DNA from: an uncultured Methylomirabilota bacterium
Lineage (GTDB): Bacteria > Methylomirabilota > Methylomirabilia > Methylomirabilales > 2-02-FULL-66-22
Direction of reading: 5' to 3'
DNA: 64,000 nucleotides
Assembly (NCBI GenBank): GCA_963845565.1
Contig: CAWJSJ010000001.1
Location: 512,001 to 576,000, forward strand
Made by a program: the position numbers and the translations under genes. Under the pieces are notes generated by a model. That model saw only the letters and a list, made by a program, of their open reading frames with translations, did not search any database and was not told the origin of the DNA. Positions 13,258 to 45,816 of the stretch are shown here, piece after piece (the stretch's first letter is position 1; each line of letters opens with the position of its first letter).

Positions 13258-13363
13258 CCCGTTGATCGAGATTGAACCTGCGTTCCGACACTGATTCAGC
13301 GCCGACTTTCCCCTTGGGTTCGGCGGCGCGTGGTGGTACCTTAACGGCTCTTCGGGAGATCGT

Positions 13364-14572: not shown

Positions 14573-14633
14573 GCGGCTGTCGTTTCCCGTGTCGAAACAC
14601 GGGGGTATCCGGACCCGCATGGAAGGAACAGTC

Positions 14634-16316: not shown

Positions 16317-16386
16317 CCCACCGCTGACCATCAACCGCGGACCAGCGTCAAGGTCCCTCCGCTCGTGCGGGCAGACGATCACCCCC

Positions 16387-17211
16387 ATGAAGGACATGCA
16401 ACGGCACCTCCGGGATATGTTCGAGGATGTCCGACGCTTCCTGGTATGCGAGGGCCTCGGCCGACTCGATGTCGTCCAGATGAACGCCAAGGGCGACGTG
16501 ACCAAGGAGTTCGATTTCCTGGCGGAGGCGCGGATCATCGAGTGGTGCCGGCAGGCGATCGCCGAGCCGGTCCGGATCCTCACCGAGGAGCGGGGCGAGG
16601 TGCGCACGCGGCCCGGGCGGGCGGCGTGGACGCTGATCGTGGACCCCGTGGACGGCTCGGAGAACTTCGCGCGCGGCAACGAGTGCTCCTCGGTCTCGCT
16701 GGCCGCATTGCCGGGGGATGAGATTCCGCACCCCGACGCCGTTTCCCATGCCTTGGTCGGTCGGATCTTCGGCGGGACCGTCCTGGAGGCGGTCAAGGGA
16801 AACGGTGCGTGGCGCAATGGCGTCCCCGTGCGGCCGTCCACGGTGCAGCGGATCGAGGATGCGGTCGTCGGCGTCGATTTCTTCTTTCCGGACCACCGGA
16901 ACGTGGCGCGGCTCGACGGGCTGCTTCGTGCGGCCCGGGATGTCCGTCGCTTCGGAACCGCCGCCGGGGAGTTGGCGATGGTCGCCTGCGGTGGGCTGGA
17001 CGCGTATGTGGATGTGCGGGACGCCTTGACCCCGGAGAACTACATGGCGAGCGTCCTCATCATCGCCGAAGCGGGCGGGGTGGTCTCCGATCGGGTGGGC
17101 CGCCCGCTGGCGCCCATCACATCCATGACGCAGAGTCAGAACGTGGTGGCTGCAGCCAATCCGACGCTGCACCGCCAGATTCTCGGGGTGCTGGACGGCC
17201 GGTCACCGTGA
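16387..17211 (+). CDS. Inositol monophosphatase / FBPase-like (FIG superfamily) phosphatase
   Basis: D..AE, ILTEE, IVDPVDGSENF, R.FG.AA.ELA.VA.G.LDAYVD, EAGGVVSD. Confidence 0.85.
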   Translation: MKDMQRHLRDMFEDVRRFLVCEGLGRLDVVQMNAKGDVTKEFDFLAEARIIEWCRQAIAEPVRILTEERGEVRTRPGRAAWTLIVDPVDGSENFARGNECSSVSLAALPGDEIPHPDAVSHALVGRIFGGTVLEAVKGNGAWRNGVPVRPSTVQRIEDAVVGVDFFFPDHRNVARLDGLLRAARDVRRFGTAAGELAMVACGGLDAYVDVRDALTPENYMASVLIIAEAGGVVSDRVGRPLAPITSMTQSQNVVAAANPTLHRQILGVLDGRSP

Positions 17212-17371
17212 CGGGATCCGTCGGGTTCTCCGGCGGCAGACCGATCGGGTCGGGGGTGTGTCCGGGGCGCCGCGCGCCCTGCGGTTCGGTGCGGTCCGGT
17301 TGACGTTGAGGATCTTGCACGAGATCCCGGTGGGTGCCGGGATCCTCGCTCACCGAGAAGGAGAATGCGGC

Positions 17372-18844
17372 ATGGACGGAATCGCCGGTTGCTATCGCCC
17401 GGGAGACCCCAACCTGGTCCAGAAGATCTTCCTGGCCACAGGGGCGGTACAGCATCGCGGGAAGGCGAGCGCGGGATTGGCCGTCGGGGGCACGAAGGGG
17501 ATCTACCTTCACAAGGGCATCGGTGGGATTGTGGACGTGGGGGACGAGGACATCCTGCGCATCTTCCAGGATCTGGAACCCGTCGCCGCCATCGGCAGCG
17601 TCGGTTACACCAAGAACAAGATCCCCGAGAAGCGGAACGCCGAACCGATCCTGGTCGAACCCAAAGCGAGCTCGACCTATACCGTGGTTCTCGCGATGAA
17701 CGGACGTATTCTCGAGGACGACGAGTTGCGGGCCGAGCTGGAGGACGCGTACAGCTTCAACACCGTCAATGCCACCGAAGTCGTCGGGGCCTTGCTTCAC
17801 CGCTGCGTCGAAGAGGAGGGAGCGAGCTTCGCCGCGGGCCGGAAGCTGGTGGACATCCTGCACGGGTGCGGTACGTTTTCCCTCGCTGCCCTCGTGCATG
17901 ATGGCGCCGAGACCGCACTCCTCACCCTGAACGACAGCCGGGCGTTCGAGCCGTTCTGTTTCGGTATGGTGGACGGGACGTTTCTCGCCTCGTCGGAGAG
18001 CTGTTCTCACCGCCGGCTCGGCGGGTTCCCGGAGCGCGAGTACGCCGGGGCGGAGATGACCATCTGCTCGTCGCGCGGTGTGGAGACCCAACGAGTCCGG
18101 ACGGAGACGGAAATGCCGGATGTCTTCCAGGCGGTCTACTTCGGGAACGCCGGCTCCCTCTACCGAGGGGAGGAGATCTTCCGGCTTCGCATGGGGCTCG
18201 GGCACGTGCTGGCCAAGCGGTATGGCGACACCGACGCCGATGTGATCATTCCGAACCCGGAGTCCGGGCGCGGCGTCTCCCACGGCATCGCCGAAGGGCT
18301 CGGGAAGCCGTTGCTTCCTGGGCTTGCCAAGCAGTCCCAGGCCATCCGCACCTTTCAGGAGGCGGGGCGGAGCAAGCGGATGCGGGAAGTGGCGGTCAAG
18401 TTCGCCGCCATGGACTCGGTCCTCGCCGGGCGACGCATCATCATGGGGGACGATTCCATCGTCAAAGGAAGCGTGAGCGAGGGCGGTGCGGTCTGGAGCG
18501 TCTACAACGCCGGGGCGGTAACACTGGAGTTTTGGGTTTCGTACGGCCCCATGTTTTTCCCCTCCTTCAAGGAGTGGCGCCGCGGCCGGGAGTGCCTGGA
18601 CGAGTTGGCCGTGCAGCGGGCATTCCGTGGCGACAACCCGTACGACAAGACGCCGGAGGGGATCAACGCCAAGGTGGCTGCCCTGTTGGGGGTGGATCGG
18701 GTCTGTTACAATACGTTCGAGGGCGTGAGAGCGGTCATCGGTCCGGGTTCGTACCAGGCGCTCGACGCGTCCTATCCCGTCGCGGAACGGTTTTGGCCCG
18801 CCTGGCTCAAGGAGGAAGTGGAGCACTTCAGCCACTATCGCTGA
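17372..18844 (+). CDS. Amidophosphoribosyltransferase-like protein (divergent PurF paralogue)
   Basis: AAGGAG RBS; MDGIAG, QHRGKASAG, ASSESC, IPNPESG, RTF, DDSIVKG align with PurF at 27674. Confidence 0.85.
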   Translation: MDGIAGCYRPGDPNLVQKIFLATGAVQHRGKASAGLAVGGTKGIYLHKGIGGIVDVGDEDILRIFQDLEPVAAIGSVGYTKNKIPEKRNAEPILVEPKASSTYTVVLAMNGRILEDDELRAELEDAYSFNTVNATEVVGALLHRCVEEEGASFAAGRKLVDILHGCGTFSLAALVHDGAETALLTLNDSRAFEPFCFGMVDGTFLASSESCSHRRLGGFPEREYAGAEMTICSSRGVETQRVRTETEMPDVFQAVYFGNAGSLYRGEEIFRLRMGLGHVLAKRYGDTDADVIIPNPESGRGVSHGIAEGLGKPLLPGLAKQSQAIRTFQEAGRSKRMREVAVKFAAMDSVLAGRRIIMGDDSIVKGSVSEGGAVWSVYNAGAVTLEFWVSYGPMFFPSFKEWRRGRECLDELAVQRAFRGDNPYDKTPEGINAKVAALLGVDRVCYNTFEGVRAVIGPGSYQALDASYPVAERFWPAWLKEEVEHFSHYR

Positions 18845-19154
18845 AGCCAAAGGGGGTTGTTTGACAAAGCGCGACGGCCGCGCATTCCCGATCCGCGTAC
18901 CGCGCAGGAGGGATTCATCACGAACTGATTACAACGCGCGATTCGGCGTTGCCATTCCGAGTCGCGTATAACAGAATGGACTTCAGCGAGCGCACCGGGG
19001 ATGTTCGTACCGAGCCGCCGTGCGCGGAAAGCGGAGCGGGAGCAGAACGTCTGCAGTGTGGAATCGCTCCCGAATCGATCATCGCGGGAATCCGCCGCCG
19101 TACTGCAGGCAACCTGCACCGGTCAACGGCGGTCCAAGACGATAGGTGTGAAGC

Positions 19155-20057
19155 GTGAGCACGCAGGCAGCTCAAATCTACCGGTTCGACGCGAGCGGAT
19201 GCAACGGGTGCGACGTGGAGGTGGTCGAGATCCTCGCCATTCTACCGGGCGCCGACCTCGGGTTCGAGATCGCCGAGCGGCCAGATGACGCGCAGGTCCT
19301 GATCGTGACGGGCGGGGCCAATCTCAAGTCCAAGGCGGAACTCCAGCATGCCTACGCGGCCTTGAAGGCGCCCCGATTGGTCGTTGCCGTGGGGTCGTGC
19401 GCGGCGAGCATGGGGATCTTCAAGGGCGGCTACTCCATGACCGGCCCGATCGATTCGATCATCCCTGTCGACCTATACATCACGGGGTGTCCGCCGCGGC
19501 CCCAGGTGATCCTCGGCGCCCTGGCGGAAGCCCTGCAGCTTTCGGTGGACGGCCTGGAGCCGCTCCTGCGAACGCCGGAGGGGTATCGGGGCGATCCCCA
19601 CGTCGATCGGGAGACCTGCGTCGGGTGCAGCGCGTGCGCGAACGTCTGCCCCGCGGATGCGATCGAGATCCTGGACGGCGAAGGCCAGCGGGTCGTCCGG
19701 TTCAGGCGAGAGGCCTGTGTCTTCTGCGGGACCTGTCAGGACGTCTGTCCGACCGAGTCGGTCACGTTGCGGGCCGGGGATCCGTCGTGGTATCGGGTCA
19801 AGGGCGCCTCGACGTCCGAGGCGGCGCTGCCGCTGGCCCAATGCGGCGTCTGCGGCGCCGCGTTCATGCCGGAGGCGCAGCTCGCGTGGGCGATGCGACG
19901 TGTCGAGGAGCGCCGCTCGCTGGACGCGGGCGATCGCGCGGCAATCCGGCGCAGCCTCCACGTCTGCATGGCATGCCGGCGAAGCCGGATCCCCGACGTC
20001 CGGGAGGCCAAGCGTCTCTTGACGTCGCTGGAGAAGAAGACCGCGATCGTATCGTAG
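19155..20057 (+). CDS. Group-4 [NiFe]-hydrogenase small subunit (NuoB/HycG-like) fused to NuoI/HycF-like 2x[4Fe-4S] domain
   Basis: GCNGCDVE, AVGSCA, GCPPRP; then GYRG..CVGCSACANVCP, CVFCGTCQDVCP, CGVC...CMAC. Confidence 0.9.
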   Translation: MSTQAAQIYRFDASGCNGCDVEVVEILAILPGADLGFEIAERPDDAQVLIVTGGANLKSKAELQHAYAALKAPRLVVAVGSCAASMGIFKGGYSMTGPIDSIIPVDLYITGCPPRPQVILGALAEALQLSVDGLEPLLRTPEGYRGDPHVDRETCVGCSACANVCPADAIEILDGEGQRVVRFRREACVFCGTCQDVCPTESVTLRAGDPSWYRVKGASTSEAALPLAQCGVCGAAFMPEAQLAWAMRRVEERRSLDAGDRAAIRRSLHVCMACRRSRIPDVREAKRLLTSLEKKTAIVS

Positions 20058-20131
20058 GCGATGGCCCCGGAGCATCCGGCCCCGCGCGAGCCCGCGGGAC
20101 GGGTCGGGCGCCCGGTTCGGGAGAGCGAATC

Positions 20132-20620
20132 GTGGAGTTGGGTGCAGCCAAGAATCGGGTGATCGTGTATGACGCGGGCCTGTGCACCGGGTGCCGCTAT
20201 TGCGAGATTGCCTGCGCGGTGTGGCACTGCGGTCGGATCGACGTCGGCCAATCGAGGATCCGCATCCTGTTCAACGCCGAGAACCGCACAGAGCCGTATG
20301 CGGCGGTGAACTGCCAGCACTGCGAGGAGCCGCTCTGCGCGACCGTCTGCCCGTCCGAGGCCATGCACAAGGATCGCGAGACCGGATGGGTGACCGTGAA
20401 CGCCTCGACCTGCATCGGCTGCGAGATGTGCCGGGCGGCCTGTCCGCTGGCCGTGCCCGTCTTCGACGAAGCCCAGAAGGTGGCGGTGAAGTGCGATCTG
20501 TGCCACGGGGAGCCGGAGTGCGTGAAGCACTGCTCGTCGCGGGCGTTGTGGCTCGCGCCCCGGGAGGAGGCCCTCCGCGTGAACGAACGGTTTTACCTCG
20601 GTGCAGGGGGCAATCCATGA
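20132..20620 (+). CDS. Four-cluster [4Fe-4S] electron-transfer protein (DmsB/HycB/CooF-like)
   Basis: CTGCRYCEIAC, CQHCEEPLCATVCP, CIGCEMCRAACP, KCDLC...ECVKHC; GGGAGA RBS with GTG start; ATGA overlap with next gene. Confidence 0.9.
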   Translation: MELGAAKNRVIVYDAGLCTGCRYCEIACAVWHCGRIDVGQSRIRILFNAENRTEPYAAVNCQHCEEPLCATVCPSEAMHKDRETGWVTVNASTCIGCEMCRAACPLAVPVFDEAQKVAVKCDLCHGEPECVKHCSSRALWLAPREEALRVNERFYLGAGGNP

Positions 20621-21282
20621 GCGCGGATACGGTACGGCGGCTCTTGGAGCGGCGAATCTCGGGGGCGCGGTTCACCTGCGCCGATTCGGGCGTGCGGCGG
20701 ACGGGCGTCACGCTACAGGCGGGGGAGGTCCGGGATGCCGTCCAGACGCTCTGCGCGGAGCCGGGGGCGCGATTCATGACCCTCACGGCCGTCGACCGGG
20801 GGACGGATATCGACCTCTTGTATCATATCTCCCTGCGGAGCGGCGTGGTCACCCTCCGGGTCGTGATCGCGAAGGAGACGAGCGCGATCGAGAGTATCGC
20901 GGACCTCGTTCCCGCGGCGGAGCTGGTGGAGAAAGAGGTGGCGGAGCTGTTCGGAGTGGGATTTGCAGGCCATCCGCGCGCCGCGAACCTCCTGCTGCCT
21001 GCCGACTGGCCCGTCGGCAAGCGGCCGCTGCGCAAGCCCCTCGTCGGTTCGGTTATTGCGCAGGCTCGCATCACCGCCGAGAACCTGGTGGCGAGCGGCT
21101 CCTCGATCGGCGTGGCGCGCTCCTCGATGGCCCGGCGCGAGAAGGCGGGACTGCCCAAGGTTCCGCCCTTGGTGGCGGCCGACCCGGATCGCTTGCGAGA
21201 ATTCCAGGAGTTCGTGAAGCGGACCGGCTTCGGCGAGCGGGCGGGGTTCGACTGGGCGAAGGGAAAACTCCGGTACAAGTAG
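20617..21282 (+). CDS. NuoC/EchD-like subunit with HdrC-like C-terminal arm
   Basis: RFMTLTAVD, LLYH, SIADLVPAAELVEKEVAELFGVGFAGHP, LLLPADWP...PLRK, then an extension of about 80 aa. Confidence 0.85.
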   Translation: MSADTVRRLLERRISGARFTCADSGVRRTGVTLQAGEVRDAVQTLCAEPGARFMTLTAVDRGTDIDLLYHISLRSGVVTLRVVIAKETSAIESIADLVPAAELVEKEVAELFGVGFAGHPRAANLLLPADWPVGKRPLRKPLVGSVIAQARITAENLVASGSSIGVARSSMARREKAGLPKVPPLVAADPDRLREFQEFVKRTGFGERAGFDWAKGKLRYK

Positions 21283-21298
21283 AGCTGCGGGGCAGGTG

Positions 21299-22174
21299 AT
21301 GAGGCGACAGGCGCTCTTCCTCGGCTGTGTACTGCCGCTCCGGTTCCCGGGCATCGAGCTGGCCGCCCGACGGGTGTTCGGCCAACTCGGGGTGCCGTGC
21401 GTGGACCTCGAAGGCTATTCATGCTGCCCCGAGCCGGTCGTCCTCGGCTTGGCCGACCCCGACATGGCCCTCGCCGTCTCGGCGCGGAACCTGGCACTGG
21501 CCGAGCGGGCGGACGCGGACCTGACGGTGATGTGCAACGGCTGCTACGAGACGCTGGCCGAGGCGGATGCCGCGCTCCGGCACGACGGCGGGGCGCACGC
21601 GCGGGTCGCGCAGCTCTTGGATGGGATCGGGACCCGTTACGAGGGAGGGGTCCGGATCAAGCACTTCGTCGAGCTCCTGCACGAGGACGTGGGGGTCGCC
21701 CGCATCGCGGAGCAGGTGACGACCCCGGTCGACGTGACGGTCGCCGTGCACTACGGGTGCCACCTCTTCCGCGAGGTCGAGCACGAGGACACCCGGCGGA
21801 AGCCCCGGATGCTGCGGGCCCTGATCGAGGCCGCGGGGGCGCGGGTGGTCGACTACGGCTTGGAAGATCTTTGCTGCGGCTTCCCGATCTCGCAGTTCGA
21901 CAAGCGCATGGCCATGCAGGAGCGCCTCCTCCCGAAGCTCCGCGCGCTGGGCGCGACGGGCGCGGAGGCGATTCTGTTCTGCTGCCCGGCCTGCCTCAAC
22001 CAGTTCGAGAGCGGGCAGGGCCCGGCGGGCGACCTGGCGGCCGACGTCCCCCGGTATCCGTGCGTGCACATCCTGGAGCTCTTGGCGCTGGCCTTCGGGA
22101 TGCGGCCGGCGGAGCTGCACCTCGACGCGCGCTTCGCGCCGTCCAGGGAATTCGTGGACTGTTTCTGGGGGTGA
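21299..22174 (+). CDS. hdrB: Heterodisulfide reductase subunit B-like protein (two CCG domains)
   Basis: LFLGC..RFPGIE, SCCP, ARNLALAE, CNGCY, HYGCH, CCG, CPAC.NQFE.GQ. Confidence 0.9.
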   Translation: MRRQALFLGCVLPLRFPGIELAARRVFGQLGVPCVDLEGYSCCPEPVVLGLADPDMALAVSARNLALAERADADLTVMCNGCYETLAEADAALRHDGGAHARVAQLLDGIGTRYEGGVRIKHFVELLHEDVGVARIAEQVTTPVDVTVAVHYGCHLFREVEHEDTRRKPRMLRALIEAAGARVVDYGLEDLCCGFPISQFDKRMAMQERLLPKLRALGATGAEAILFCCPACLNQFESGQGPAGDLAADVPRYPCVHILELLALAFGMRPAELHLDARFAPSREFVDCFWG

Positions 22175-22212
22175 GCCGCGACGCGGCGCTCCTTTCGTTT
22201 CGGATGACGGAC

Positions 22213-23298
22213 ATGACCACAACCATCACGATCGGCCCCTACCACCCGTACCTGCTCGAGCCCAGCATTGTCGACCTGCAGGTTGTCGACGGGCGCGTGG
22301 CGGACGCCACCATCACGGTGGGGTTCGTCAACCGGGCGGTCGAAGAACTGATGACGAAGAAAACCTACCGCCAGGCCGTGGTGCTGGCGGAGCACGTCTG
22401 CGGCATCTGCAGTAACGTCCACAGCCTGGCCTTCTGTCAGGCGACCGAAGAGATCCTGGGGGTCGAGATTCCGCACCGGGCCCGGTACGTTCGGACGATC
22501 GTCGTGGAGCTGGAGCGGCTGCACAGCCATTTCCTCTGCCTGGGACTCCTGGCCCACGCCCTCCATGACGGGGAGCATTTCGTCCGTATCATGGCGGAGC
22601 GGGAGGCGCTGATCCGCCTGCTCGAGCGCGTCAGCGGGAACCGGGTCCATTACGGTGTGAACGCCATCGGCGGCGTCCGGCGGGACCTGACGCCGGAACG
22701 GGCGAGCGATATCCTGGAGGTCCTGGGGCGGCTGGAATCGCTGGGCCATTTCGTGGTGGACGCCCTGGGCCCGGACGGGGCGCTGGGGAAGCGGGTCGCA
22801 GGGCAGGGGATCGTGACGGGACCCGAGGCCATCGCCCTCGGCGCGGTAGGGCCCACGCTGCGCGCCAGCGGGATCGAGAGCGACCTGCGGAAGGAGGACA
22901 GGTACGCGGCCTATCCGGACGTGACCTTCGATCTGATCGTCGAGACGGCCGGGGACGTCCGGTCCCGATTCCTGGTCCGGGCCCGGGAAACCCTGGAAAG
23001 CATCAAGATCATCCGGCAACTCTTCGACCGCCTGCCCGACGGACCGCTGACGGGCCAGGTGCGAGAGCCCAATATCAAGGAATCGCGAGAAGTCCTGGGG
23101 CGAGTCGAAGCACCACGCGGAGAGCTGGTCTATTTCATCCGCTCCAACGGCACGACCATTCCCGATCGGGTCAAGATCCGCACACCCACCTTCGCCAACA
23201 TCGCCTTCCTCCGCCGGGCGCTCACTGGAGCGCCGGTCGACGACACGCGGACCATCATCGAGAGCATCGATCCGTGCCTCTCCTGCACGGACCGGTAG
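22213..23298 (+). CDS. Group-4-type [NiFe]-hydrogenase large subunit (EchE/NuoD-like, about 361 aa)
   Basis: IGPYHP.LLEP, EHVCGICS..H, ELERLHSH, EAPRGEL, KIRTPT, DPCLSCTDR-stop; alternative ATG at 22204. Confidence 0.92.
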   Translation: MTTTITIGPYHPYLLEPSIVDLQVVDGRVADATITVGFVNRAVEELMTKKTYRQAVVLAEHVCGICSNVHSLAFCQATEEILGVEIPHRARYVRTIVVELERLHSHFLCLGLLAHALHDGEHFVRIMAEREALIRLLERVSGNRVHYGVNAIGGVRRDLTPERASDILEVLGRLESLGHFVVDALGPDGALGKRVAGQGIVTGPEAIALGAVGPTLRASGIESDLRKEDRYAAYPDVTFDLIVETAGDVRSRFLVRARETLESIKIIRQLFDRLPDGPLTGQVREPNIKESREVLGRVEAPRGELVYFIRSNGTTIPDRVKIRTPTFANIAFLRRALTGAPVDDTRTIIESIDPCLSCTDR

Positions 23299-23468
23299 CA
23301 GGCTGCTGAAAACGGCCCATCTGCTGCGTTGGCTCGCTGAGGCACTCGTTGCGGCGTACCCACAGTACGCCACTCGGCCTCGGGCACCCATCCACAGGAT
23401 GGGTCGCGCCGCCTTGCATCTGGACCTTTTTGATCAGCCTGGGCGAATATAGGAATTTCAGCAGCCAG
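23299..23468. repeat. MITE-like palindromic repeat, family 2, copy 1
   Basis: CAGGCTGCTGAAAACGGCCCATCTGCTGCGTTGG...GCCGCCTTGCATCTGGACC..TTTGA..GCCTG shared with 39892; inverted ends. Confidence 0.8.
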
Positions 23469-24965
23469 TCAGTCGGGGAGGGGGCAGCCCTCACACCGCT
23501 CCGCCTTGGGCCGAGGCGCGATGGGTCGCCGCGGCTCGGCGGGTGTCTCCGCTTTCCGGACCGGATGGATGTGCACCGGCATCCCCGCGGCGACCTCGGC
23601 GGCTTCCATGAGGGCCTCGGAGAGGGTCGGGTGAGCGTGGATGGTGACCATGAGGTCTTCCAGGGTCGCCCCCAACTGCACCGCCAGGGTGCCCTCGGCG
23701 ATCAGTTCAGAGGCGTGCGGGCCCACCATCCCAACTCCCAGGACCCGCCGGGACTCCGGACAGCTGATCACCTTGACCACGCCCTCGGTGCGCCCCATGG
23801 TCCGCGCCCGGCCCGAGGCCACGAGGGGGAAGCGGCCCACAGTGACCGGCAGGTTCTGCGCGGCCGCCTCCCGCTCGGTCAGGCCGGCCCAGGCCAGCTC
23901 GGGGTCGGTGAACACCACGGCCGGGATGGCCCGAGCCTCGAGCGCCGAGGAGTGACCTGCGATCGCTTCGGCGGCAACCTTGCCCTCGTGGCTGGCCTTG
24001 TGCGCCAGCATGGGGCCGGGGACGATGTCGCCGATGGCGTAGATGTGCGGTTCCACCGTCCGGCCCACCTCGTCCACCTCGATGAATCCGCCCCGGATGG
24101 GGCGGATGGCCGTCCGGTCCAGGCCCAGCCGATCGGTATTGGGGCGGCGCCCGACGGCGACCAGGATCTGGTCGGTTTCGAGCGTCTGCCGCTGCCCCTG
24201 CTGTTCCACGGTGGTCAAATAGCCGCTCGATCCCTGCTGGATGTCGACGACCTTGGACTCGGTCAGGATGCGCGAGAACCGTCTCTCGCAGCTCTTGACC
24301 ACCACGTCCACCAGGTCCTGGTCGGCCCCCGGGAGGAGCCGCGGGAAAAACTCGACCATCGTCACCTGCGAGCCCAGTCCGGCATAGACCAACCCCATCT
24401 CAAGGCCGATGTAGCCCCCTCCGACGACGAGCAGCCGGGGCGGGATCTCGGGGAGGCGCAGCGCCTCTGCCGAGGACCAGAGCGGGAGCGTCTGGCCCGC
24501 CGGCAGCCGGTTGATGTCCGATCCGGTGGCGAGGATGCAATGGCGGAAGCGGATCCGCGCGGATTCTGCTCCGCTCACTTCGAGGGTGCGATTGTCCAGG
24601 AATTGCGCCCAGCCGCGGACGACCGTCACGCCGCGCCGCTTGAGGAGCCCGTCGATCCCCTTGGTCAAGGTCTCGACCACGCTCCCGCTCCAGCGGCGCA
24701 ACGCCGCCGGATCCAGGGAGAGGTCCGAGAACGTGAGGCCCATCTTGCGCGCGGCGCGAGCGCTTTCCGCCAGCTCCACGACGTTGATGAGGGTCTTGGA
24801 TGGAATGCATCCTTCGATCAGGCACACACCGCCGAGTCGATCCCGCTCTTCGATGAGGACGACGTTCTTGCCGAGATCGGCGGCGCGGATGGCCGCAACG
24901 TATCCTCCGGGTCCGCCGCCGACGATGGCGACCTCTGTTTCCTCGCGCAGGTTGCCCAGGACCAT
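23469..24965 (-). CDS. lpdA: Dihydrolipoamide dehydrogenase
   Basis: GGGPGGY, GGVCLIEGCIPSK, GGGYIGLE, GPMLAHKA, HAHPTLSE; GGAGG RBS. Confidence 0.96.
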   Translation of the reverse strand: MVLGNLREETEVAIVGGGPGGYVAAIRAADLGKNVVLIEERDRLGGVCLIEGCIPSKTLINVVELAESARAARKMGLTFSDLSLDPAALRRWSGSVVETLTKGIDGLLKRRGVTVVRGWAQFLDNRTLEVSGAESARIRFRHCILATGSDINRLPAGQTLPLWSSAEALRLPEIPPRLLVVGGGYIGLEMGLVYAGLGSQVTMVEFFPRLLPGADQDLVDVVVKSCERRFSRILTESKVVDIQQGSSGYLTTVEQQGQRQTLETDQILVAVGRRPNTDRLGLDRTAIRPIRGGFIEVDEVGRTVEPHIYAIGDIVPGPMLAHKASHEGKVAAEAIAGHSSALEARAIPAVVFTDPELAWAGLTEREAAAQNLPVTVGRFPLVASGRARTMGRTEGVVKVISCPESRRVLGVGMVGPHASELIAEGTLAVQLGATLEDLMVTIHAHPTLSEALMEAAEVAAGMPVHIHPVRKAETPAEPRRPIAPRPKAERCEGCPLPD

Positions 24966-25075
24966 GTCACGAACCTCCCATTTTGACGTTCGCCAGAGCG
25001 CTGGAACGACATTCCTGTTGGATGGTCGCCCGCACGAGGCCATCGCGGGTCCTGCGAAAGACCCCGGTGAATTTC

Positions 25076-25104
25076 ACGGTAGCCCAGTGGACCGGGGGTG
25101 TCAA
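25076..25104 (-). promoter_or_regulatory. Sigma70-type promoter for lpdA
   Basis: Minus strand TTGACA-N17-TACCGT. Confidence 0.55.
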
Positions 25105-25142
25105 GCGAAGAGCCGATCGTCAATTCGTGTCCGAGGAAGCCG

Positions 25143-25171
25143 TTGACACCCCCAGGCTCCTCTGATAGCCT
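25143..25171 (+). promoter_or_regulatory. Sigma70-type promoter for lipA
   Basis: TTGACA-N17-TAGCCT. Confidence 0.55.
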
Positions 25172-25172
25172 C

Positions 25173-25323
25173 CCCACCGAGGGGTGGAACTGCGCGAGAT
25201 CGCCTGCAGTTGCCGGTGGTAAGATCCGCGTGCGAGAGAGGTTGCCGGCCCGCTTTTGATATTCTCTGTCCGCGGTTGGTCGTCTCTGAGCCCCCCTCGG
25301 GGGGCTTCATGCTTCTCGGTGGG
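25173..25323 (+). ncRNA. Candidate structured RNA in the lipA leader (family unknown)
   Basis: CCCACCGAGGGGTG pairs with TGCTTCTCGGTGGG; nested stems inside; identified by eye only. Confidence 0.35.
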
Positions 25324-25436
25324 ACGCGGGAGCGTTGGCGGAAAAGAACGGGCGAGGAGAAAGAACCTGACGGGTTGCGGTAAGGGCGTCACCAACCGCG
25401 ATGCGCGAGTCATCGGACGAGAAGGAATCGGGGCAC

Positions 25437-26342
25437 ATGAGCCAGGAACTGTTGCAGATTGGAGGCGCGCCGTCTGGATCCATCCCGCGGCGCCTGCCCC
25501 CGTGGCTGCGCGCCAAGTCGGGACACTGGGAGCGCGTGCACGACATGAAGGTGCTCCTGACCGGCTCCCGCCTGCATACGGTGTGCGAAGAGGCCCGCTG
25601 TCCCAATCAGGGAGAATGTTGGACGCGTGGGACGGCCACCTTCATGCTGCTGGGCGAGATCTGCACCAGGAGCTGCGGTTTCTGCGCGGTGGCCACGGGA
25701 CGCCCGGCGCCGCCGGATGCGGAGGAGCCGCGCCACGTCGCCGAGGCCAGCCGCCGACTGGGTTTGAAGTTCGTGGTGGTGACGTCGGTGGCCCGTGACG
25801 ATCTTCCCGATGGTGGGGCGGGTCATTTCGCGGCCACGGTGCGCGCCATCCGGGGTGCCAGCCCGGGCACGGAGGTGGAGGTCCTGGTACCGGATTTCAA
25901 GGGTGACCGGGACAGCATCCGCACCGTGGTGGAGAGTCGTCCGACGGTGTTCAATCATAACCTGGAGACGGTGGAGCGGCTGACCAGGCGCGTCCGGATC
26001 CAGGCCCGATATCAGCGGTCGCTGGAGGTGCTGCGGACCGCCAAAGAGGTGGGGCAGCCTCTCACCAAGACTGGGGTCATGCTGGGGTTGGGCGAGACGG
26101 AGCCGGAAGTGCTGACGCTGCTCCGAGACGCGCGCGCCGCGGCGTGTGACATCGTGACGATCGGCCAGTACCTGCAGCCGACGAAGCAGCACCTCCCGGT
26201 CGCGGAGTTCGTGCATCCGGATCGGTTCAAGGCCTTCGAGGAGGCGGCCTACGGCCTGGGGTTCACATCCGTCTTCGCGGGGCCGCTCGTCCGGAGCTCG
26301 TACCACGCAGAGCTGGTCGCCGGGTATCCGCAGACGAAGTAG
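25437..26342 (+). CDS. lipA: Lipoyl synthase
   Basis: [38 protein letters not shown]. Confidence 0.97.
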
Positions 26343-26433
26343 ACCGGCAGTGCGACGAGGCACCTATCGCGGGGACGCGACCCCCGATTCCCGAGTCGCC
26401 ACGTTGCCACACCGAAAGAGGAGCAGGGGGGCG

Positions 26434-27600
26434 ATGGAGGAGTTCAAGCGAATCAAGCGGCTGCCACCGTACGTCTTCAGCATCGTCAACGAGCTCAAGG
26501 TGAAAGCCCGCGGCCGGGGCGAGGACATCATCGATTTCGGGATGGGGAATCCGGACATGCCCACCCCGGACCACATCGTGGACAAGCTCGTCGAGGCGGC
26601 CCGGAATCCCCGGAATCATCGCTACTCCGCCTCCCGGGGGATCACCAAGCTGCGGCACGGCATCTGCGACTGGTACCGCCGACGGTACGCGGTTGAGCTG
26701 GATCCGGACACCGAGGCGATCGCCACGATCGGCGCCAAGGAAGGACTCTCGCATCTGGCGCTGGCCATCGTGGATGCGGGCGATGTGGCCCTGGTGCCCA
26801 GTCCGACCTATCCCATTCATCCATATTCGGTCATCATCGCGGGCGGCGACGTACGCCACGTCCGACTCGGGCCGGGCGAGGATTTCTTCGCCAACCTGAT
26901 GTCTGCGTTCCAGGAATGCTGGCCGCAACCGAAGCTGCTCATCCTCAGCTTCCCGCACAACCCAACCACGACCGTAGTGGATATCGAGTTCTTCACGAAG
27001 ATCGTCGCCTTCGCACAGGAACACGACTTGATCGTGGTGCATGATTTTGCTTACTCCGACCTGGTGTTCGACGGATACCAGGCGCCCAGCCTGCTCCAGG
27101 TCCCGGGTGCGAAGGACGTCGGGGTCGAGTTCTTCACGCTCTCGAAGAGCTACAATATGCCCGGTTGGCGTGTCGGATTTGCCGTCGGGAACCGGCGAAT
27201 CGTCGCGGCATTGACCCGGATCAAAAGCTACCTGGATTACGGGATGTTCCAGCCGGTCCAGATCGCCTCGATCATCGCCCTGAACGGGCCGCAGGATTGC
27301 GTGCAGGACATCGTCGGGACCTACCGGTCGCGACGGGACGTGCTCTGCGACGGGCTCAGTCGGGTCGGCTGGAAGGTCGACAAGCCGCGCGGCACGATGT
27401 TCGTGTGGGCCCGGATTCCGGACCAGCACCGGGCCATGGGATCCCTGGAGTTCAGCAAGTACCTCCTGGACAAAGCCCGCGTGGCGGTGTCGCCGGGGAT
27501 CGGTTTCGGGCAATACGGGGACGAGTACGTGCGGTTCGCCTTGGTGGAGAACGAACACCGGACGCGCCAGGCCATCCAGGGCATCAAGCGAATCCTGTAG
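26434..27600 (+). CDS. alaC: PLP-dependent class I aminotransferase (AlaC/YfdZ-like)
   Basis: [61 protein letters not shown]. Confidence 0.85.
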
Positions 27601-27673
27601 GCCCGAAGGCGTGTCGGGCTGCGCGCAGTCGCGAGGCTGACATTGGCCGCCCGCACGGCAAGGGGAGAGGGCC

Positions 27674-40990: not shown

Positions 40991-42046
40991 CTAGCAGATG
41001 CGGGGGAGCTGCTCGCCGCTCAGCATGTCCATGATGCGAGTGGCGCCGATCCGGCTCTCGATGGTGACGAGGCCGACGGGCTTTTCCGCCACCCGGCCGA
41101 TGATCGCGGCATCCTTCCCATTCGGGTGCGCCTGCAGGATGCGGAGGGCGCGTTCCGCCTGATCGCTGGGAACGAAAGCGACGAAGCGGCCCTCGTTCGC
41201 GACGTAGAGGGGGTCGAACCCCAGGATCTCGCAGGCCCCGCGCACTTCCTCGCCAACGGGGACGGCGACCTCGCGGATATGGATCTGCACCTTCGCCGCC
41301 TCGGCGATCTCGATGAGGGCGCTGGCCAGGCCTCCGCGCGTCAAGTCCCGCAGACAGTGCACCTCGATCCCCGCCGAGAGCAGGTCGGTGACCAATCCGG
41401 CGAGCGGGGCGCAATCGCTTTCGATCGTCGTCTCGAAGGCGAGGTTTTCCCGTACCGCCATGATGGCCATGCCGTGTCGGCCGACGTCGCCGCTCAAAAC
41501 GATGGCGTCGCCGGGCCGGACGCTGGTCGGCGTGATGGCCAGGGAGTGGTCGATCCGTCCGACACCCGCCGTGGTGATGAAGATCCCATCGCCCTTGCCT
41601 CGATCCACGACCTTGGTGTCTCCCGTCACGATCTGAATTCCGGCGGCGTCCGCGGCGTGCCGCATGGACACCAGGATCCGCTGGAGCGTCTCGACGGGAA
41701 GCCCCTCCTCCAGAACGAAGCCGGCGCTGAGGTACAGCGGCCGGGCCCCGCTCATGGCCAGGTCATTGACCGTCCCGTTGACCGCCAGGGTGCCGATGTC
41801 GCCCCCAGGGAAGAACAGCGGCCGGACCACGTAGCCGTCGGTGGTAAACGCCAGCCGAGCCCCGGCAATCTCGAGCACGGCGCTGTCGTGCCGGACGTCC
41901 AGGACCGGGTTCCGAAAGGCCGGGACGATGGTCTGCTCGATCAGTTGGTGCATCAGCCGGCCGCCGCCGCCGTGGGCGAGCAGGATATGGGCGTAGTCGC
42001 CGTGGGGGATCGGGCAACTGGCGGAGAAATCCACGGGGTCCGTCAC
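40991..42046 (-). CDS. hypE: Hydrogenase maturation carbamoyl dehydratase
   Basis: [36 protein letters not shown]-terminal GEQLPRIC. Confidence 0.96.
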
Positions 42047-43164
42047 GAACGTGGCTCCACGGCGGCGGTGTCGGCGTCGCGCATCCGCCGGTAACGGTAG
42101 TATGCGGCGCAGGCACCTTCCGAGGAGACCATGGGGGCGCCCAGCGGGCGCTCGGGCGTGCAGCGGGTGCCGAAGGCCGGGCACTCGTGCGGTTTCAGGA
42201 CTCCCTGGAGGACGAGGCCGCTCTGACATTCCGAGGTGTGGTCCGACCCCGAGGCGGCCGGACCGAACCGGCGCTCGGCGTCGAAGTCCGCGTACGCGTC
42301 GCTGAGACCCAGACCGCTCTCCGGGATCTCGCCCACGCCCCGCCACCTGCGCCGCACCACCCGGAAGACCTCGCGGATCAATTGCTGGGCGGGCCGATTT
42401 CCCTCGCGGCGGACGGAGCGGGCATACTGGTTCTCGACCTCGGCGCGGCCGGATTCGAGCTGCGCGACGCACATGGCGATGCCCTGGAAGACGTCCACCG
42501 GCTCGAACCCGGTGACCACGATGGGGACGCGGTACTTGGCGGCGATCGGCTCGTACTCCTGGTACCCCATGACGGCGCAGACGTGCCCCGCAGCGAGGAA
42601 ACCCTGGACGCGGTTCCGGGGCGACGACAGGATGGCCTCCATGGCCGGCGGCACGAGGACGTGGGAGACGAGCAGGGAGAAGTTGGCGAGCCCCTCGCGC
42701 CGCGCCTGGGCCACGGCCATGGCGTTGGCCGGCGCGGTGGTCTCGAATCCGACGGCGAAGAACACAATCTGCTTGTCCGGATGTTCCTTGGCGATGCGGA
42801 CGGTGTCCAGGGGCGAGTAGACGATGCGCACGTCACCGCCACGGGCCTTCACGGTGAGGAGATCGTGCGTGGTTCCGGGAACGCGCAGCATATCGCCAAA
42901 GGAGCAGAAGATGACGTCGGGCCGCGAGGCGATCTCGACGGCCTTGTCGATCAGTTCGATGGGCGTCACGCACACGGGGCAGCCGGGGCCATGGACGAGC
43001 GTGAGGCTCTTGGGCAGCAGGGTGTCCACACCGTATTTCACGATGGTGTGGGTCTGGCCGCCGCAGATCTCCATGATCGTCCAGGGGCGGGTGACCTGCC
43101 TCGCGATGGCGCGGGCGTAGCCTTGGGCGACGCCCGCGTCGCGGTATTCGTCCACAAATTTCAT
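42043..43164 (-). CDS. hypD: Hydrogenase maturation protein HypD
   Basis: [40 protein letters not shown]. Confidence 0.97.
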
Positions 43165-43415
43165 GCGGACAGGTCCTGGGCGGTATTCGCCTGATCGATT
43201 TGTTTCAGGTAGGTGAACACCTCGTTCGCTTCCGCCTCGTCGAGTCGGCTGATCGCCATGCCCACATGGACGATGACGTAGTCGCCGACCTGCGCCTCGG
43301 GGAGGCACATCAGATTCACGTTCTTGATGATCCCGCCGAAGCTCACCTTGCCGGTGCGCTGCAGAGGGTCTTCTCCGCTGATGCTGACGAGCTGTCCTGG
43401 AACGGCCAAACACAT
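43161..43415 (-). CDS. hypC: Hydrogenase maturation chaperone HypC
   Basis: [19 protein letters not shown]. Confidence 0.96.
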
Positions 43416-43427
43416 GACGCTTACTCC

Positions 43428-43531
43428 TTAGGAGCCGTTACGAAATTACCGGTCCATTTTTTTCAATTTCGTTACGGCCCTTATGCCGTCTCAGAATTTC
43501 TCCGGTCAAGTTATTCTTTAACAACGGCTTT
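43428..43531 (-). repeat. MITE-like repeat family 1, subtype B, inserted in the hypF 3' end
   Basis: Reverse complement AAAGCCGTTGTTAAAGAATAACTTGACCGGAGAAATTCTG...TTTCGTAACGGCTCCTAA. Confidence 0.85.
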
Positions 43532-45816
43532 GCCCGGGCGGCCGCCAGGACCTGCCCCAGCGCAATCCCGCCGTCGTTGGGGGGAACCCGCTGGTGCCAG
43601 TGCGGCGAAAACCCTGCCGCGGCCAGGCCACGTACGGTCCGCTCGGTGAGATACCGGTTCTGGAAACAGCCGCCGCTCAAGGCGATGGTCTGTATGCCAA
43701 CCTGCTTTGCGATCGCGACGATCAGCTCCGCCAAGGTGTTGTGGAAGCGTGCCGCGATACCGCCGAGCGCGACACCGCCGGCGAGGTCTGCCAGGAGCGC
43801 CCGGATGACCGGCTCCCAATCTGCGATCAGGATACCCTGCTTGGGCTCTATCTGGAAGGGGTAGGATGCATCCGTCTCCACATCCCGGATGGCCCACTCG
43901 AGTTCCATGGCTGCCTGTCCCTCGAACCGTGTGGTGAGACGGAGCCCGAGCAGAGCCGCCACCGCGTCGAAGAGTCGGCCGGCGCTGGAGGTCAGCGGCG
44001 CGTTGATGTGATTGGCCAGCGCTTGTGCCACAAGGGTGCGCTCTCGCGGTTCGAACGACCGCACGGGGGCAAGCTCCTCTCGTGCGGCGAACCGGTCGCC
44101 CTCCATCTCGTAGAGCAGGCCGATGGCGGTTCGGCGGGGTTCCTTGACGGCGTGCTCGCCGCCGGGGAGGCGAAAGGTTCGCAGATGGGCGACGCGCTGG
44201 AAGCCCGACTCCGTGACCCGCAGGAACTCTCCTCCCCAGATGGTATGGTCGAGGCCGTACCCGGTGCCGTCCCAGGACACGCCCAGGACGGGACTCTCGA
44301 GCCCGTTTTCCGCCATGCAGGAGAGAATGTGGGCGTAGTGGTGCTGGACATGGACGAGCGGGAGGCCGGTGTCGATGGCATGGCGGGTGGAAAGATAGTC
44401 CGGGTGGGCGTCGCACGCGACCGCCTGTGGCGTCAGGTCGTACAGCCGGAGGAGGTCGTCGCCGACACGGCGAAACGCGTCGAAGGCCTGAGGGGTCTCC
44501 AGGTCGCCGATGTGCTGACTGACGAAGACCTGGGTGTGGGTCGAGACGGCTACCGCATTCTTGAGATGCGCGCCCACCGCCAGCAGGGGCGGGAGAACCC
44601 GGCTCACCTGGATCGGAAGCGGGGCATAGCCGCGCGCGCGTCGCAGGACCAGTTCGCGTCCCAGGAGTACCCGAGCGACCGAGTCGTCCACGTGCCGGGC
44701 GATGGGGCGTTCGTGGACCAGGAAGAGGTCGGCGATCCCCGCCAGACGAGTCAGCGCATCGCGTTCGTCGGTACAGATCGGCTCATCGGAGAGGTTCCCG
44801 CTGGTCGCGACGACCGGCGTGTTCAACTCCCTCACGAGAATGTGATGGAGTGGGGTACAGGGCAGCATGACACCCAGGTCGGGGTTTCCGGGCGCCACGG
44901 ACGGGGCGATGGGGCTGCCGCATCCGCAGAAATCCTTGCGCCGTCGCAGGAGGACAATGGGGGATTCCGGGGAGGCGAGCAGCCGCTCCTCCAGCGTAGA
45001 CACCTCACAATGCGCTTTAATGGAATCGAGATAAGGTGCCATTATTGCAAGTGGTTTATCCTCTCGATGTTTTCGTTCTCGAAGTCGAATGACCGCCGCT
45101 TCGTTGGTTCCGTCCACCATGAGATGAAAACCGCCGAGACCCTTGACGGCGACGATCTGGCCGCGGCGAATGGCCTCGGCCGCATCGCGCAAGGCCGGGT
45201 GGTGCGCAGAGAGTACCTCGCCGGCGGGGCCCCACAGCTCGAGATGCGGGCCGCAGGTGGGGCAGGCGTTCGGCTGGGCGTGGAACCGGCGGTCACTCGG
45301 GTCCTCGTATTCTCCCCGGCAGGTGTCGCACATCGCGAACCCGGCCATGGTGGTGTTGCGCCGGTCGTATGGGAGGGCCCGGATGATGGAGAAACGCGGT
45401 CCGCAGTTCGTGCAGTTCGTGAAGGGATAGCGGTAGCGGCGATCCGCAGGATCACCGATCTCCCGCAGACAGTCGGCGCAGGTAGAGATATCCGGGAGGA
45501 CGAGGGCCGTCCGCTCGCCGGTGTGATCGCTGGGTCGAATCTCGAAGGTATGGAAGCCGATCGGGGAGAGAAACGATGGCTCCAGGCTCTGGATCGACGA
45601 TCGGGGGGGCCGCTCCTTCTCCAGGCGCAGCAGGAAGCTGCGCAGGGCGTCGGGCGCGCCTTCGACCTCCAGAAAGACCCCCTGCGGCGAATTGGACACC
45701 CAGCCCGGCATGCCCATTTCGGTGGCAAGACGATAGACGAAGGGCCGAAATCCGACCCCCTGTACGGCGCCGCGAATCGCGACGCGCAGCCGCTCCTGTT
45801 GCGTTGTCTTCGGCAT
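43438..45816 (-). CDS. hypF: Carbamoyltransferase HypF
   Basis: GAVQGVGFRPF, zinc fingers CADC...CTNCGPR, KGLGGFHL, QHHYAH, WDGTGYG, PPNDGGIALGQ. Confidence 0.97.
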   Translation of the reverse strand: MPKTTQQERLRVAIRGAVQGVGFRPFVYRLATEMGMPGWVSNSPQGVFLEVEGAPDALRSFLLRLEKERPPRSSIQSLEPSFLSPIGFHTFEIRPSDHTGERTALVLPDISTCADCLREIGDPADRRYRYPFTNCTNCGPRFSIIRALPYDRRNTTMAGFAMCDTCRGEYEDPSDRRFHAQPNACPTCGPHLELWGPAGEVLSAHHPALRDAAEAIRRGQIVAVKGLGGFHLMVDGTNEAAVIRLRERKHREDKPLAIMAPYLDSIKAHCEVSTLEERLLASPESPIVLLRRRKDFCGCGSPIAPSVAPGNPDLGVMLPCTPLHHILVRELNTPVVATSGNLSDEPICTDERDALTRLAGIADLFLVHERPIARHVDDSVARVLLGRELVLRRARGYAPLPIQVSRVLPPLLAVGAHLKNAVAVSTHTQVFVSQHIGDLETPQAFDAFRRVGDDLLRLYDLTPQAVACDAHPDYLSTRHAIDTGLPLVHVQHHYAHILSCMAENGLESPVLGVSWDGTGYGLDHTIWGGEFLRVTESGFQRVAHLRTFRLPGGEHAVKEPRRTAIGLLYEMEGDRFAAREELAPVRSFEPRERTLVAQALANHINAPLTSSAGRLFDAVAALLGLRLTTRFEGQAAMELEWAIRDVETDASYPFQIEPKQGILIADWEPVIRALLADLAGGVALGGIAARFHNTLAELIVAIAKQVGIQTIALSGGCFQNRYLTERTVRGLAAAGFSPHWHQRVPPNDGGIALGQVLAAARAKPLLKNNLTGEILRRHKGRNEIEKNGPVIS

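Follow-up and report, generated by a model that had tools for sequence, protein, structure and literature searches.

Group-4 [NiFe] hydrogenases are generally viewed as membrane-bound, energy-converting enzymes and as ancestors of complex I. The locus described here raises the question of whether the peripheral arm of such an enzyme can also exist on its own, detached from any membrane partner and wired to an HdrB-like subunit. The locus lies in a stretch of 64,000 nucleotides (nt), hereafter the window, of an uncultured Methylomirabilota bacterium (assembly GCA_963845565.1, contig CAWJSJ010000001.1 or C1, positions 512,001 to 576,000), and consists of five co-oriented, tightly spaced genes, g1 to g5, at positions 19155-23298 of the forward strand. 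On the sequence evidence presented below, we consider it reasonably probable that this operon encodes a cytoplasmic, non-bifurcating H2:disulfide (or persulfide) oxidoreductase originating from the Mbh-like branch of group 4. The evolutionary step behind such an enzyme would have been the loss of the NuoH-like and antiporter-like subunits, with the HdrB-like subunit serving as a second catalytic site.

The five operon proteins and the missing membrane arm

Genes were called by their G+C content at third codon positions (GC3), with translations of the open reading frames (ORFs) used alongside, and all 55 called genes of the window were scanned against Pfam. The host genome comprises 5.36 Mb and is 98.7% complete; the G+C content of the window (~67%) is the same as that of the genome. 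All five reading frames of the operon are open in the window, and their GC3 is as high as elsewhere in the genome. A spacer of 101 nt separates g1 from g2, g2 and g3 overlap by 4 nt, and g3 to g4 and g4 to g5 are spaced by 13 nt and 29 nt, the last spacing becoming a 4-nt overlap if g5 started at 22171, where its ORF opens; the likely start is the later one listed in Table 1 (MTDMT), where the homologues begin. An initial annotation, made from the letters alone, had read the five genes as a small subunit/NuoI fusion, a 4x[4Fe-4S] protein, a NuoC-like protein, HdrB and a Ni-binding large subunit, and these identities proved correct in every detail when compared with Pfam, NCBIfam and the cysteine motifs.

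The product of g1 combines two electron-transferring modules in a single chain. Its first half matches PF01058 (Oxidored_q6) and the NCBIfam NuoB model PRK06411, both over residues 16-125, and its second half matches 4Fe-4S dicluster families at residues 149-204 and the iron-sulfur subunit of formate hydrogenlyase (FHL; PRK12387) over residues 139-278, with the HycF chain 7z0s_F aligning to residues 140-279. An additional CxxC...CxxC motif follows at the C-terminus. Its 16 cysteines, among them C16, C19, C82 and C112, which are predicted from the sequence to hold the single proximal [4Fe-4S] cluster, do not vary across 10 sequences from bacteria and Bathyarchaeia. Inspection of the sequence and its hydropathy revealed neither a twin-arginine translocation motif nor a transmembrane segment in g1. 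An AlphaFold2 model built from a 10-row alignment was too poor for a fold search (mean predicted local distance difference test 60.5, predicted template modelling score 0.55). The g2 protein gives NCBIfam matches to DmsB, HybA, NrfC and HydN, each under its cut-off, and displays four cysteine cluster motifs whose 16 cysteines are invariant in 11 sequences, while g3 extends beyond its NuoC-like domain by a C-terminal stretch of ~80 residues that is shared by Bathyarchaeia homologues, which align over residues 27-221.

The two proteins at the ends of the proposed electron path are g4 and g5. Full-length matches relate g4 to the solved HdrB chains, among them 9sfi_C (215 bits) and 5odc_B (211 bits), the solved chains spanning 177-215 bits. 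The ten motif cysteines of g4 (C11, C43, C44, C80, C83, C155, C193, C194, C230 and C233) are invariant in 34 sequences, and both CCG domains fit the HdrB spacing rule, Cx31-39CCx35-36CxxC, so that g4 is predicted to bind two non-cubane [4Fe-4S] clusters. As for g5, its L1 (CGICSNVH) and L2 (DPCLSCTDR) motifs agree with the group-4 definitions C[GS][ILV]C[AGNS]xxH and [DE][PL]Cx[AGST]Cx[DE][RL] (PMC7886697), the four cysteines being invariant in 11 of 11 large subunits, and the NuoB-, NuoI- and NuoC-like subunits that accompany group-4 large subunits are present as g1 and g3. The nearest solved relatives are Pyrococcus furiosus MbhL (6cfw_L, 230 bits) and then HycE (7z0s_E, 189 bits). The g5 protein, like its bacterial homologues, terminates at L2 (DPCxxCxxR) with no C-terminal extension; archaeal large subunits carry an extension of 14-30 residues and often have HycI nearby.

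No membrane part is encoded alongside these proteins. The maximum 19-residue Kyte-Doolittle hydropathy of g1-g5 lies between 1.29 and 1.54, against 2.69 for NuoH and 2.82 for the antiporter subunit of a related locus used as controls, and no transmembrane segment was found by this measure in any of the five. Neither PF00146 (NuoH) nor PF00361 (antiporter) matched any of the 55 genes of the window, which thus contains none of the subunits that define membrane-bound group-4 enzymes, and the same Pfam scan found no HdrA, standalone HdrC or MvhD, as had been claimed. At the genome level, six NuoD-like loci and five NuoH-like genes were detected. Every NuoH-like gene has one of the five other NuoD-like genes at a distance of 1.2-4.6 kb, so none is an orphan in this genome; the nearest is 79 kb from the operon and the closest antiporter-like gene 82 kb. 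The same pairing of NuoH-like genes with other NuoD-like genes was observed in three Bathyarchaeia genomes that carry the module (G251-G253). The genome search that the initial annotation had proposed hence revealed no unassigned membrane arm, all five NuoH-like genes being taken, although it did reveal an hdrA, absent from the window, in a canonical cluster 59 kb away that has its own HdrB and a group-3-type hydrogenase.

By homology to the peripheral arms of the solved membrane-bound hydrogenase (MBH) and FHL and to the HdrB of Mvh-Hdr, we infer a complex of the five proteins, its electron path, the direction of H2 uptake and the class of substrate. H2 would be cleaved at the Ni-Fe site of g5. 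The electrons would enter g1 at the proximal [4Fe-4S] cluster of its NuoB-like half, cross the pair of [4Fe-4S] clusters in its NuoI/HycF-like half and travel through the four such clusters of g2 to g4. At the two non-cubane clusters of g4 they would finally reduce the substrate, either a disulfide or a carrier-bound persulfide or polysulfide; g3 would be a structural NuoC-like subunit. Since no flavoprotein is found among g1-g5, electron bifurcation would not take place, and the absence of a membrane arm implies that no ions would be pumped. The reverse reaction, driven by low-potential dithiols at very low H2, is conceivable. A complex prediction of g1 (residues 135-300) with g2 and g4, in which g4 was the partner, scored only slightly higher than its control with chain 1 replaced.

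Parts of all five genes are covered by contigs that stem from four metatranscriptome libraries, belonging to four studies, and one of these contigs is near-identical to positions 20512-21659 (7 differences in 1148 nt), joining the end of g2, g3 and the start of g4. These contigs offer a weak hint of expression of g1-g5, with DNA carry-over as a possible source; their depth cannot rank the genes, and the uncovered parts of g5 carry no meaning.

Conservation and spread of the module

Relatives of the locus were collected as 80 best genome loci by alignment of the large subunit and 80 metagenome loci by alignment of HdrB, and the resulting 160 loci were queried with the proteins of the window and with membrane-subunit queries. 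The two collections overlap in part, some loci being the same sequence in both, as with L011 and L145. In 60 of the 160 loci, the gene immediately upstream of a group-4 large subunit is HdrB-like, and 42 of these 60, bacterial and archaeal, also contain a full-length fused g1. Six of the 42 show the bacterial order of genes, g1-g2-g3-g4-g5, and the other 36 the archaeal order, g2-g3-g4-g5-g1. The recurrence of the same five genes in 42 loci indicates that their arrangement is not due to chance. Membrane subunits are absent from 59 of the 60 loci, and from 16 of the 17 whose flanks reach at least 5 kb and 4 kb, while nearly all other group-4 loci of the large-subunit set with sufficient flank carry both membrane genes. 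The five genes, with intact metal-binding motifs and with the membrane parts missing, are thus conserved in two domains of life. Hence, the synteny search across bacteria and archaea envisaged by the initial annotation came out in favour of a recurrent module, with membrane subunits in a single locus.

That locus, L016 from Bathyarchaeia, has a NuoH-like gene and an antiporter-like gene of 851 amino acids (aa), and its NuoI and NuoB are separate genes. In L156, the contig ends before the large subunit and holds an antiporter gene. Among metagenomic relatives of g5, one series is 60-96% identical to it and proteins named as Bathyarchaeia or Bathyarchaeota are ~52% identical. The flanks of the Bathyarchaeia modules are of several kinds: one type contains HycI and Hyp genes, and in L014, L015, L121, L125 and L134 the module is followed by an HdrC-like gene and a second HdrB, or by MvhD. 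Genes for TusA, a YeeE/YedE-like sulfur transporter, two copies of DsrE and DsrH follow the module at L011:11255-13570, and the same set stands beside it in L145-L147; this complete sulfur-relay set, seen with the module of one Bathyarchaeia lineage, hints at a persulfide substrate. As a separate observation, an unclassified bacterial metagenome-assembled genome contains another odd membrane-free group-4-like cluster (L020:6304-10935). In it, a LarB-like (AIRC) gene and LarC are directly followed by genes for a NuoC-like protein, a large subunit of group-4 type (42% identical) and a NuoI-like protein, and NuoB, NuoH and antiporter genes are absent within 19 kb. LarC is involved in nickel insertion.

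Phylogenetic analysis of the large subunit, performed as a quick and unrooted IQ-TREE run on 85 rows, several of them long, placed the eight membrane-free sequences in one clade with a Shimodaira-Hasegawa-like approximate likelihood ratio test (SH-aLRT) value of 99; the large-subunit phylogeny that the initial annotation had proposed thereby recovered them as monophyletic. The clade divides into a bacterial trio (SH-aLRT 100) and five Bathyarchaeia sequences (99), and is located among archaeal Mbh-like enzymes of unnamed subgroup from Hadarchaeota, Thermoplasmatota, Nitrososphaerota and other Bathyarchaeia, all of which have membrane subunits. L016 stands on the neighbouring branch, and the NuoB-NuoI fusion is confined to the membrane-free clade. 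The fused g1 appeared in 6 of 251 Methylomirabilota genomes, all of them in the genus of the window (5 of its 20 other species), and in 37 of 401 sampled Bathyarchaeia genomes (~9%), with identities of 40-77%. Taken together, the broad and deep archaeal spread, the narrow bacterial spread and the tree suggest that the operon was transferred from archaea to this bacterial genus. Metagenomes of 13 studies, sampled from wetland, freshwater, sediment and soil, contain DNA near-identical to that of the window.

A second bacterial phylum seemed to be represented by L010, labelled 'Baltobacteraceae'; this candidate was rejected, as L010 is the same contig as G011:C166, in the genus of the window, and shares with the window the housekeeping flank of HhH-GPD, ThiI and ArgRS. 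L010 was probably mislabelled, or else its contig was mis-binned. When the bacterial-type loci L101, L106, L097 and L108 were compared with window positions 12649-29068, the flanking ThiI, ArgRS, LipA, aminotransferase and PurF genes were 80-95% identical, whereas the hydrogenase genes were only 50-75% identical, with g3 the lowest (~53%). Either fast evolution or an exchange of alleles at a fixed site could account for this contrast. One copy is degraded: at G016:C17:117238-123733 (L094), a TAA stop interrupts g1, g2 is 42% identical, g3 is partial and diverged, and the Lpd-like and LipA matches are also partial.

Genes around the operon

Table 1. Position of the operon genes and of neighbouring features (window coordinates unless a contig is named)
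Feature	Position	Strand	Remarks
g1, NuoB-like [NiFe] small subunit fused to NuoI/HycF-like 2x[4Fe-4S] domain	19155..20057	+	300 aa
g2, 4x[4Fe-4S] polyferredoxin, HycB/HydN/DmsB/CooF type	20159..20620	+	153 aa; PF13247 Fer4_11
g3, NuoC-like subunit	20617..21282	+	221 aa; PF00329 Complex1_30kDa at residues 32-140
g4, HdrB-like with two CCG domains	21296..22174	+	292 aa; PF02754 CCG, two stretches
g5, group-4 [NiFe] large subunit	22204..23298	+	364 aa; PF00346 Complex1_49kDa and PF00374 NiFeSe_Hases
Sigma-70-like promoter match	18949..18977	+	~180 nt upstream of g1, in 310-nt intergenic gap
Dispersed repeat copy, ~150 nt, 26-nt inverted terminal arms	23299..23445	.	fills g5-g6 gap
g6, dihydrolipoyl-dehydrogenase-type flavoprotein disulfide reductase	23469..24965	-	TIGR01350 492 bits, cut-off 408.8
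hypE (40991-42046), hypD (42043-43155), hypC (43161-43346), hypF (43438-45717)	40991..45717	-	Pfam AIRS/AIRS_C, HypD, HupF_HypC and HypF domains
FHL-like and Hox-like hydrogenase region	G000:C1:612679-623032 and 623667-626403 (L096)		outside window

The gene convergent with the operon, g6, encodes a flavoprotein disulfide reductase of the dihydrolipoyl dehydrogenase type. With a cut-off of E<=1e-100, the genomes of the genus that contain g6 are exactly the 6 of 21 with g1, the 15 others lacking it. In each of the ten bacterial-type loci of sufficient reach (L009, L010, L097, L101, L104-L108 and L155), it adjoins the operon tail-to-tail. Three genomes of the genus without the cluster (L177:8491-9810, L178 and L179) show at the same site the order ArgRS-(IMPase)-lpd-lipA, where the resident lpd is 40% identical to g6 and lies on the strand of lipA, opposite to that of g6; a search of the window's own genome revealed no closer copy of this resident lpd than g6 itself. 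Judging from the co-occurrence and from the comparison of sites, operon and g6 arrived jointly, replacing the resident lpd. Their linkage may be functional, through a shared thiol/disulfide carrier, or could equally result from carry-along during recombination. The archaeal modules have no Lpd-like neighbour, giving only two weak matches (27% identity) at a distance of 4-5 kb. A dedicated lipoyl carrier was considered and rejected, since copies of the GcvH family are not enriched in the six carriers (1-2, against 0-4 in non-carriers), and LipA was rejected as a member of the system because it counts as a core gene, with 17 of the 21 genomes carrying it.

The gap between g5 and g6 is filled by a repeat that could form a stable fold (minimum free energy -75.7 kcal/mol, z -3.5) and of which the genome contains at least 40 copies at 74-93% identity (42 matches, with 40 of 218 first-look candidates scored). 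It looks like a miniature inverted-repeat transposable element or a repetitive extragenic palindromic element, and is possibly transcribed. The depth of contigs from four RNA libraries rises 10- to 100-fold over positions 23023-23656, with many loose ends at the borders of the repeat. A small RNA of this locus was rejected as the source of this peak, which the dispersed repeat explains, and Rfam and tRNA scans of the operon and of the high-depth intergenic stretch gave no match. The promoter-like site upstream of g1 fits 9 of 12 hexamer positions and is a consensus match only; the region contains two such sites, where shuffled sequences would give 0.5.

The maturation genes hypFCDE, located 18 kb downstream of the operon, had been taken as support for a matured enzyme; the genes are indeed there, but they are not specific to the hydrogenase of the operon and could serve any of the four [NiFe] hydrogenases of the genome. 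On contig C1, the operon stands at the beginning of ~95 kb rich in hydrogenase genes, with three further [NiFe] hydrogenase clusters: the canonical HdrC-HdrB-HdrA-MvhD-MvhG-MvhA cluster with a HypB-like gene (G000:C1:594048-600623, L095, outside the window), an FHL-like group-4 cluster 77-83 kb downstream (HycE-type fused large subunit, NuoH, antiporter, HycI and molybdopterin oxidoreductase) and, beyond it, a Hox-like hydrogenase with a HoxU-type subunit.

Two further features of the window were recorded. Just upstream of the operon, at 17258-18844 (+), lies a PurF-like glutamine amidotransferase (TIGR01134 150 bits, cut-off 350) that shares 29% identity with the true PurF (27674-29068); it occurs in the carrier loci L097, L100, L101, L103 and L106 and is absent in L108 and L010, being a variable passenger of the island. 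At 61936-62427 (-), two short ORFs, encoding 72 and 58 aa, have matches confined to the C-terminal end of AcrB-type resistance-nodulation-division transporters (PF00873, positions 872-1021) and resemble pieces of a disrupted efflux pump gene.

Proposed reaction, rival explanations and known systems

Several observations weigh against a soluble enzyme that reduces disulfides with H2. HdrC, the usual partner of HdrB, is missing from the operon, and g4 scores 242.1 bits against the HdrB model TIGR03288, under its equivalog cut-off of 345.15 bits. A soluble H2:disulfide reaction would waste the large free-energy drop available with high-potential disulfides, which argues for a low-potential substrate or for a different role. 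Characterised group-4 enzymes mostly evolve H2, so that the reaction may also run in that direction. The degraded copy in G016 indicates that the module is dispensable, and peripheral membrane association, or docking on a module encoded elsewhere, would be compatible with the sequence. As to related proposals, Drh is termed 'putative membrane-associated' (PMC6046458), and PMC9723716 reports no purified member of Ehd, Ehe, Drh or Ehg. Of the soluble, non-bifurcating H2:disulfide enzyme that the initial annotation had put forward, the architecture stands, with no membrane arm and no flavoprotein among the five genes, and the reaction is the part that is inferred.

If the five proteins were a peripheral arm docking on a membrane module encoded elsewhere, for instance that of the FHL-like cluster, they would form an ion-translocating, Ehd-like enzyme. 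Antiporter genes are present in L156 and, together with NuoH, in L016, the nearest HdrB-containing relative outside the clade, the printed models of Ehd, Ehe and Ehg are membrane-bound (PMC9723716), and the genome contains five NuoH-containing clusters. We nevertheless judge such docking quite unlikely, as every NuoH-like gene of the host and of the three archaeal carriers has its own adjacent NuoD-like partner, membrane genes are lacking from nearly all loci including those with long flanks, and the NuoB-NuoI fusion, split into separate genes in L016, marks only the membrane-free clade; moreover, no single group-4 cluster that could lend its arm was found in common between bacterial and archaeal carriers, in what was no systematic comparison. 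That the operon is instead a recently acquired, decaying passenger devoid of present function in the bacterium appears very improbable. Its patchy presence in one genus, the stop codon in g1 of one carrier and the low identity of the hydrogenase genes beside well-conserved housekeeping flanks would agree with decay, but the five frames are open with genome-like GC3 and G+C content, all metal-binding cysteines are conserved, maturation genes are present and RNA-library contigs fall on g1-g5.

Other alternatives leave the complex soluble and change its chemistry. The same complex might act as an H2-evolving redox valve, oxidising a dithiol or persulfide carrier, perhaps kept reduced by g6 and NADH, at the very low H2 of anoxic sediments. 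The closest solved relatives, MBH and FHL, are generally known to evolve H2, g6 strictly accompanies g1 in tail-to-tail position, the DNA is found in wetland, freshwater, sediment and soil, and a lipoamide-like couple, at ~-290 mV, would make H2 evolution feasible below a few Pa of H2. For most disulfide couples, however, H2 evolution is strongly endergonic; g6 replaces a resident lpd beside the core gene lipA and has the score of a genuine dihydrolipoyl dehydrogenase, so that its linkage may be historical; and the lack of Lpd-like genes in the archaeal modules, together with the ordinary numbers of GcvH-like genes in the carriers, points away from such a circuit, which on balance we hold to be unlikely. 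It is also doubtful that g4 is no disulfide reductase at all and couples H2 to a non-thiol acceptor, as CCG proteins also act on other substrates, in LutA (lactate utilisation), in GlcF (glycolate oxidase) and at the SdhE-type fumarate/quinol site. CoM-S-S-CoB, a heterodisulfide formed by coenzymes M and B, is unlikely in a bacterium of this phylum, g4 falls below the HdrB cut-off, and it matches the NCBIfam models of the SdhE-type membrane anchor (105 bits), LdhH and GlcF, far under their cut-offs. Yet the best matches of g4 by far are true HdrB proteins, over the full length in the case of the solved chains, both five-cysteine motifs are intact, and archaeal modules adjoin TusA, DsrE and DsrH or further Hdr subunits.

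A more far-reaching scenario, to which we give little credence for now, would make the module the first truly soluble group-4 lineage and a subgroup of its own. It would have originated in Bathyarchaeia by loss of the membrane arm and fusion of NuoB with NuoI before passing into bacteria. There, g6 would cooperate with a carrier that cycles between dithiol and disulfide and is either lipoyl-like or bears a persulfide, and this thiol chemistry would connect H2 and NAD(H) in a reversible way, independent of a diaphorase module or ferredoxin.

If the operon does encode a soluble H2:disulfide (or persulfide) oxidoreductase, the peripheral arm of group-4 enzymes would be able to work as a free-standing soluble redox module and could be re-wired to a thiol/disulfide site. 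The module would then offer a simple system of five subunits, free of flavin and membrane parts, for two questions on HdrB, namely how its non-cubane clusters are fed and which substrates HdrB-like proteins use in organisms that lack CoM and CoB. It would also document a likely transfer of a complete hydrogenase from archaea to bacteria. These prospects concern specialists of hydrogenases and complex I, and all the evidence comes from genomes of uncultured organisms.

The initial annotation presented the operon as a candidate new system, which overstates its novelty, as HdrB-linked group-4 hydrogenases are already in print and the module is probably related to this proposed family; the literature searched contained, in contrast, no description of a membrane-free, fused form or of a bacterial one. 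Genomic predictions of HdrB-associated group-4 enzymes comprise Ehd (Methanomethylicia), Ehe (Culexarchaeia), Ehg (Nezhaarchaeia) and an 'Ehd-like' group including Bathyarchaeia (Kohtz et al. 2022, PMC9723716). All of these are described with ion antiporter or membrane subunits, and Drh without an ion antiporter subunit. Ehg is expressed in a culture (PMC12700198), hdrB2 was placed within an 'fpo' operon in a study of Bathyarchaeia (PMC8407382), and Hfo, a hydrogenase of Bathyarchaeia from termite guts, is a distinct membrane complex of 11 subunits (PMC7886697). Full-text literature yielded no membrane-free HdrB-linked group-4 hydrogenase and no bacterial case, the figures and supplements of PMC9723716 and the original Drh paper lying outside the scope of this search. 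As far as found, what is new is the membrane-free form, the fused NuoB-NuoI subunit and the occurrence in bacteria; Drh might share the architecture.

The window module resembles Ehd and Ehe in having an HdrB gene inside a group-4 cluster, with g4 between g3 and g5, and the reaction proposed for these enzymes is the transfer of electrons from H2 to CoM-S-S-CoB or to an unknown disulfide. L016, next to the clade of the window in the tree, represents the membrane-bound Ehd/Ehe-like form. Ehd and Ehe are described with HdrBC, an ion antiporter and transmembrane subunits, whereas the window module is bacterial, has a fused NuoB-NuoI protein and lacks HdrC and membrane subunits; the distinction from Ehd, Ehe and Drh is drawn from their published descriptions.

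Drh, a name reportedly due to Lyu and Lu in 2015, is a further close parallel, its proposed reaction involving no ion pumping. This 'disulfide-reducing hydrogenase' of Methanocellales (Liu et al. 2018, PMC6046458) is likewise of group-4 type, with HdrB and no ion antiporter, and is proposed to reduce the heterodisulfide directly with H2 (PMC9723716, PMC6046458). Unlike the window module, Drh is reported only from Methanocellales, as 'putative membrane-associated'.

With MBH (6cfw) and E. coli FHL (7z0s), the module shares the wiring of the peripheral arm, g5 corresponding to MbhL/HycE, the C-terminal half of g1 to HycF, and g2 being of the HycB/HydN type. Those enzymes, in contrast, are integral to the membrane through NuoH- and antiporter-like subunits and use ferredoxin or formate as partner, and they have neither the HdrB subunit nor the NuoB-NuoI fusion found here. 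In the MvhAGD-HdrABC complex of group 3c (5odc), as proposed for the window module, HdrB with its two non-cubane clusters is the terminal site and H2 reduces a disulfide. The electrons of Mvh-Hdr, however, travel through MvhD, the bifurcating flavoprotein HdrA and HdrC, while the operon of the window belongs to group 4 and would reach the same kind of site with none of the three.

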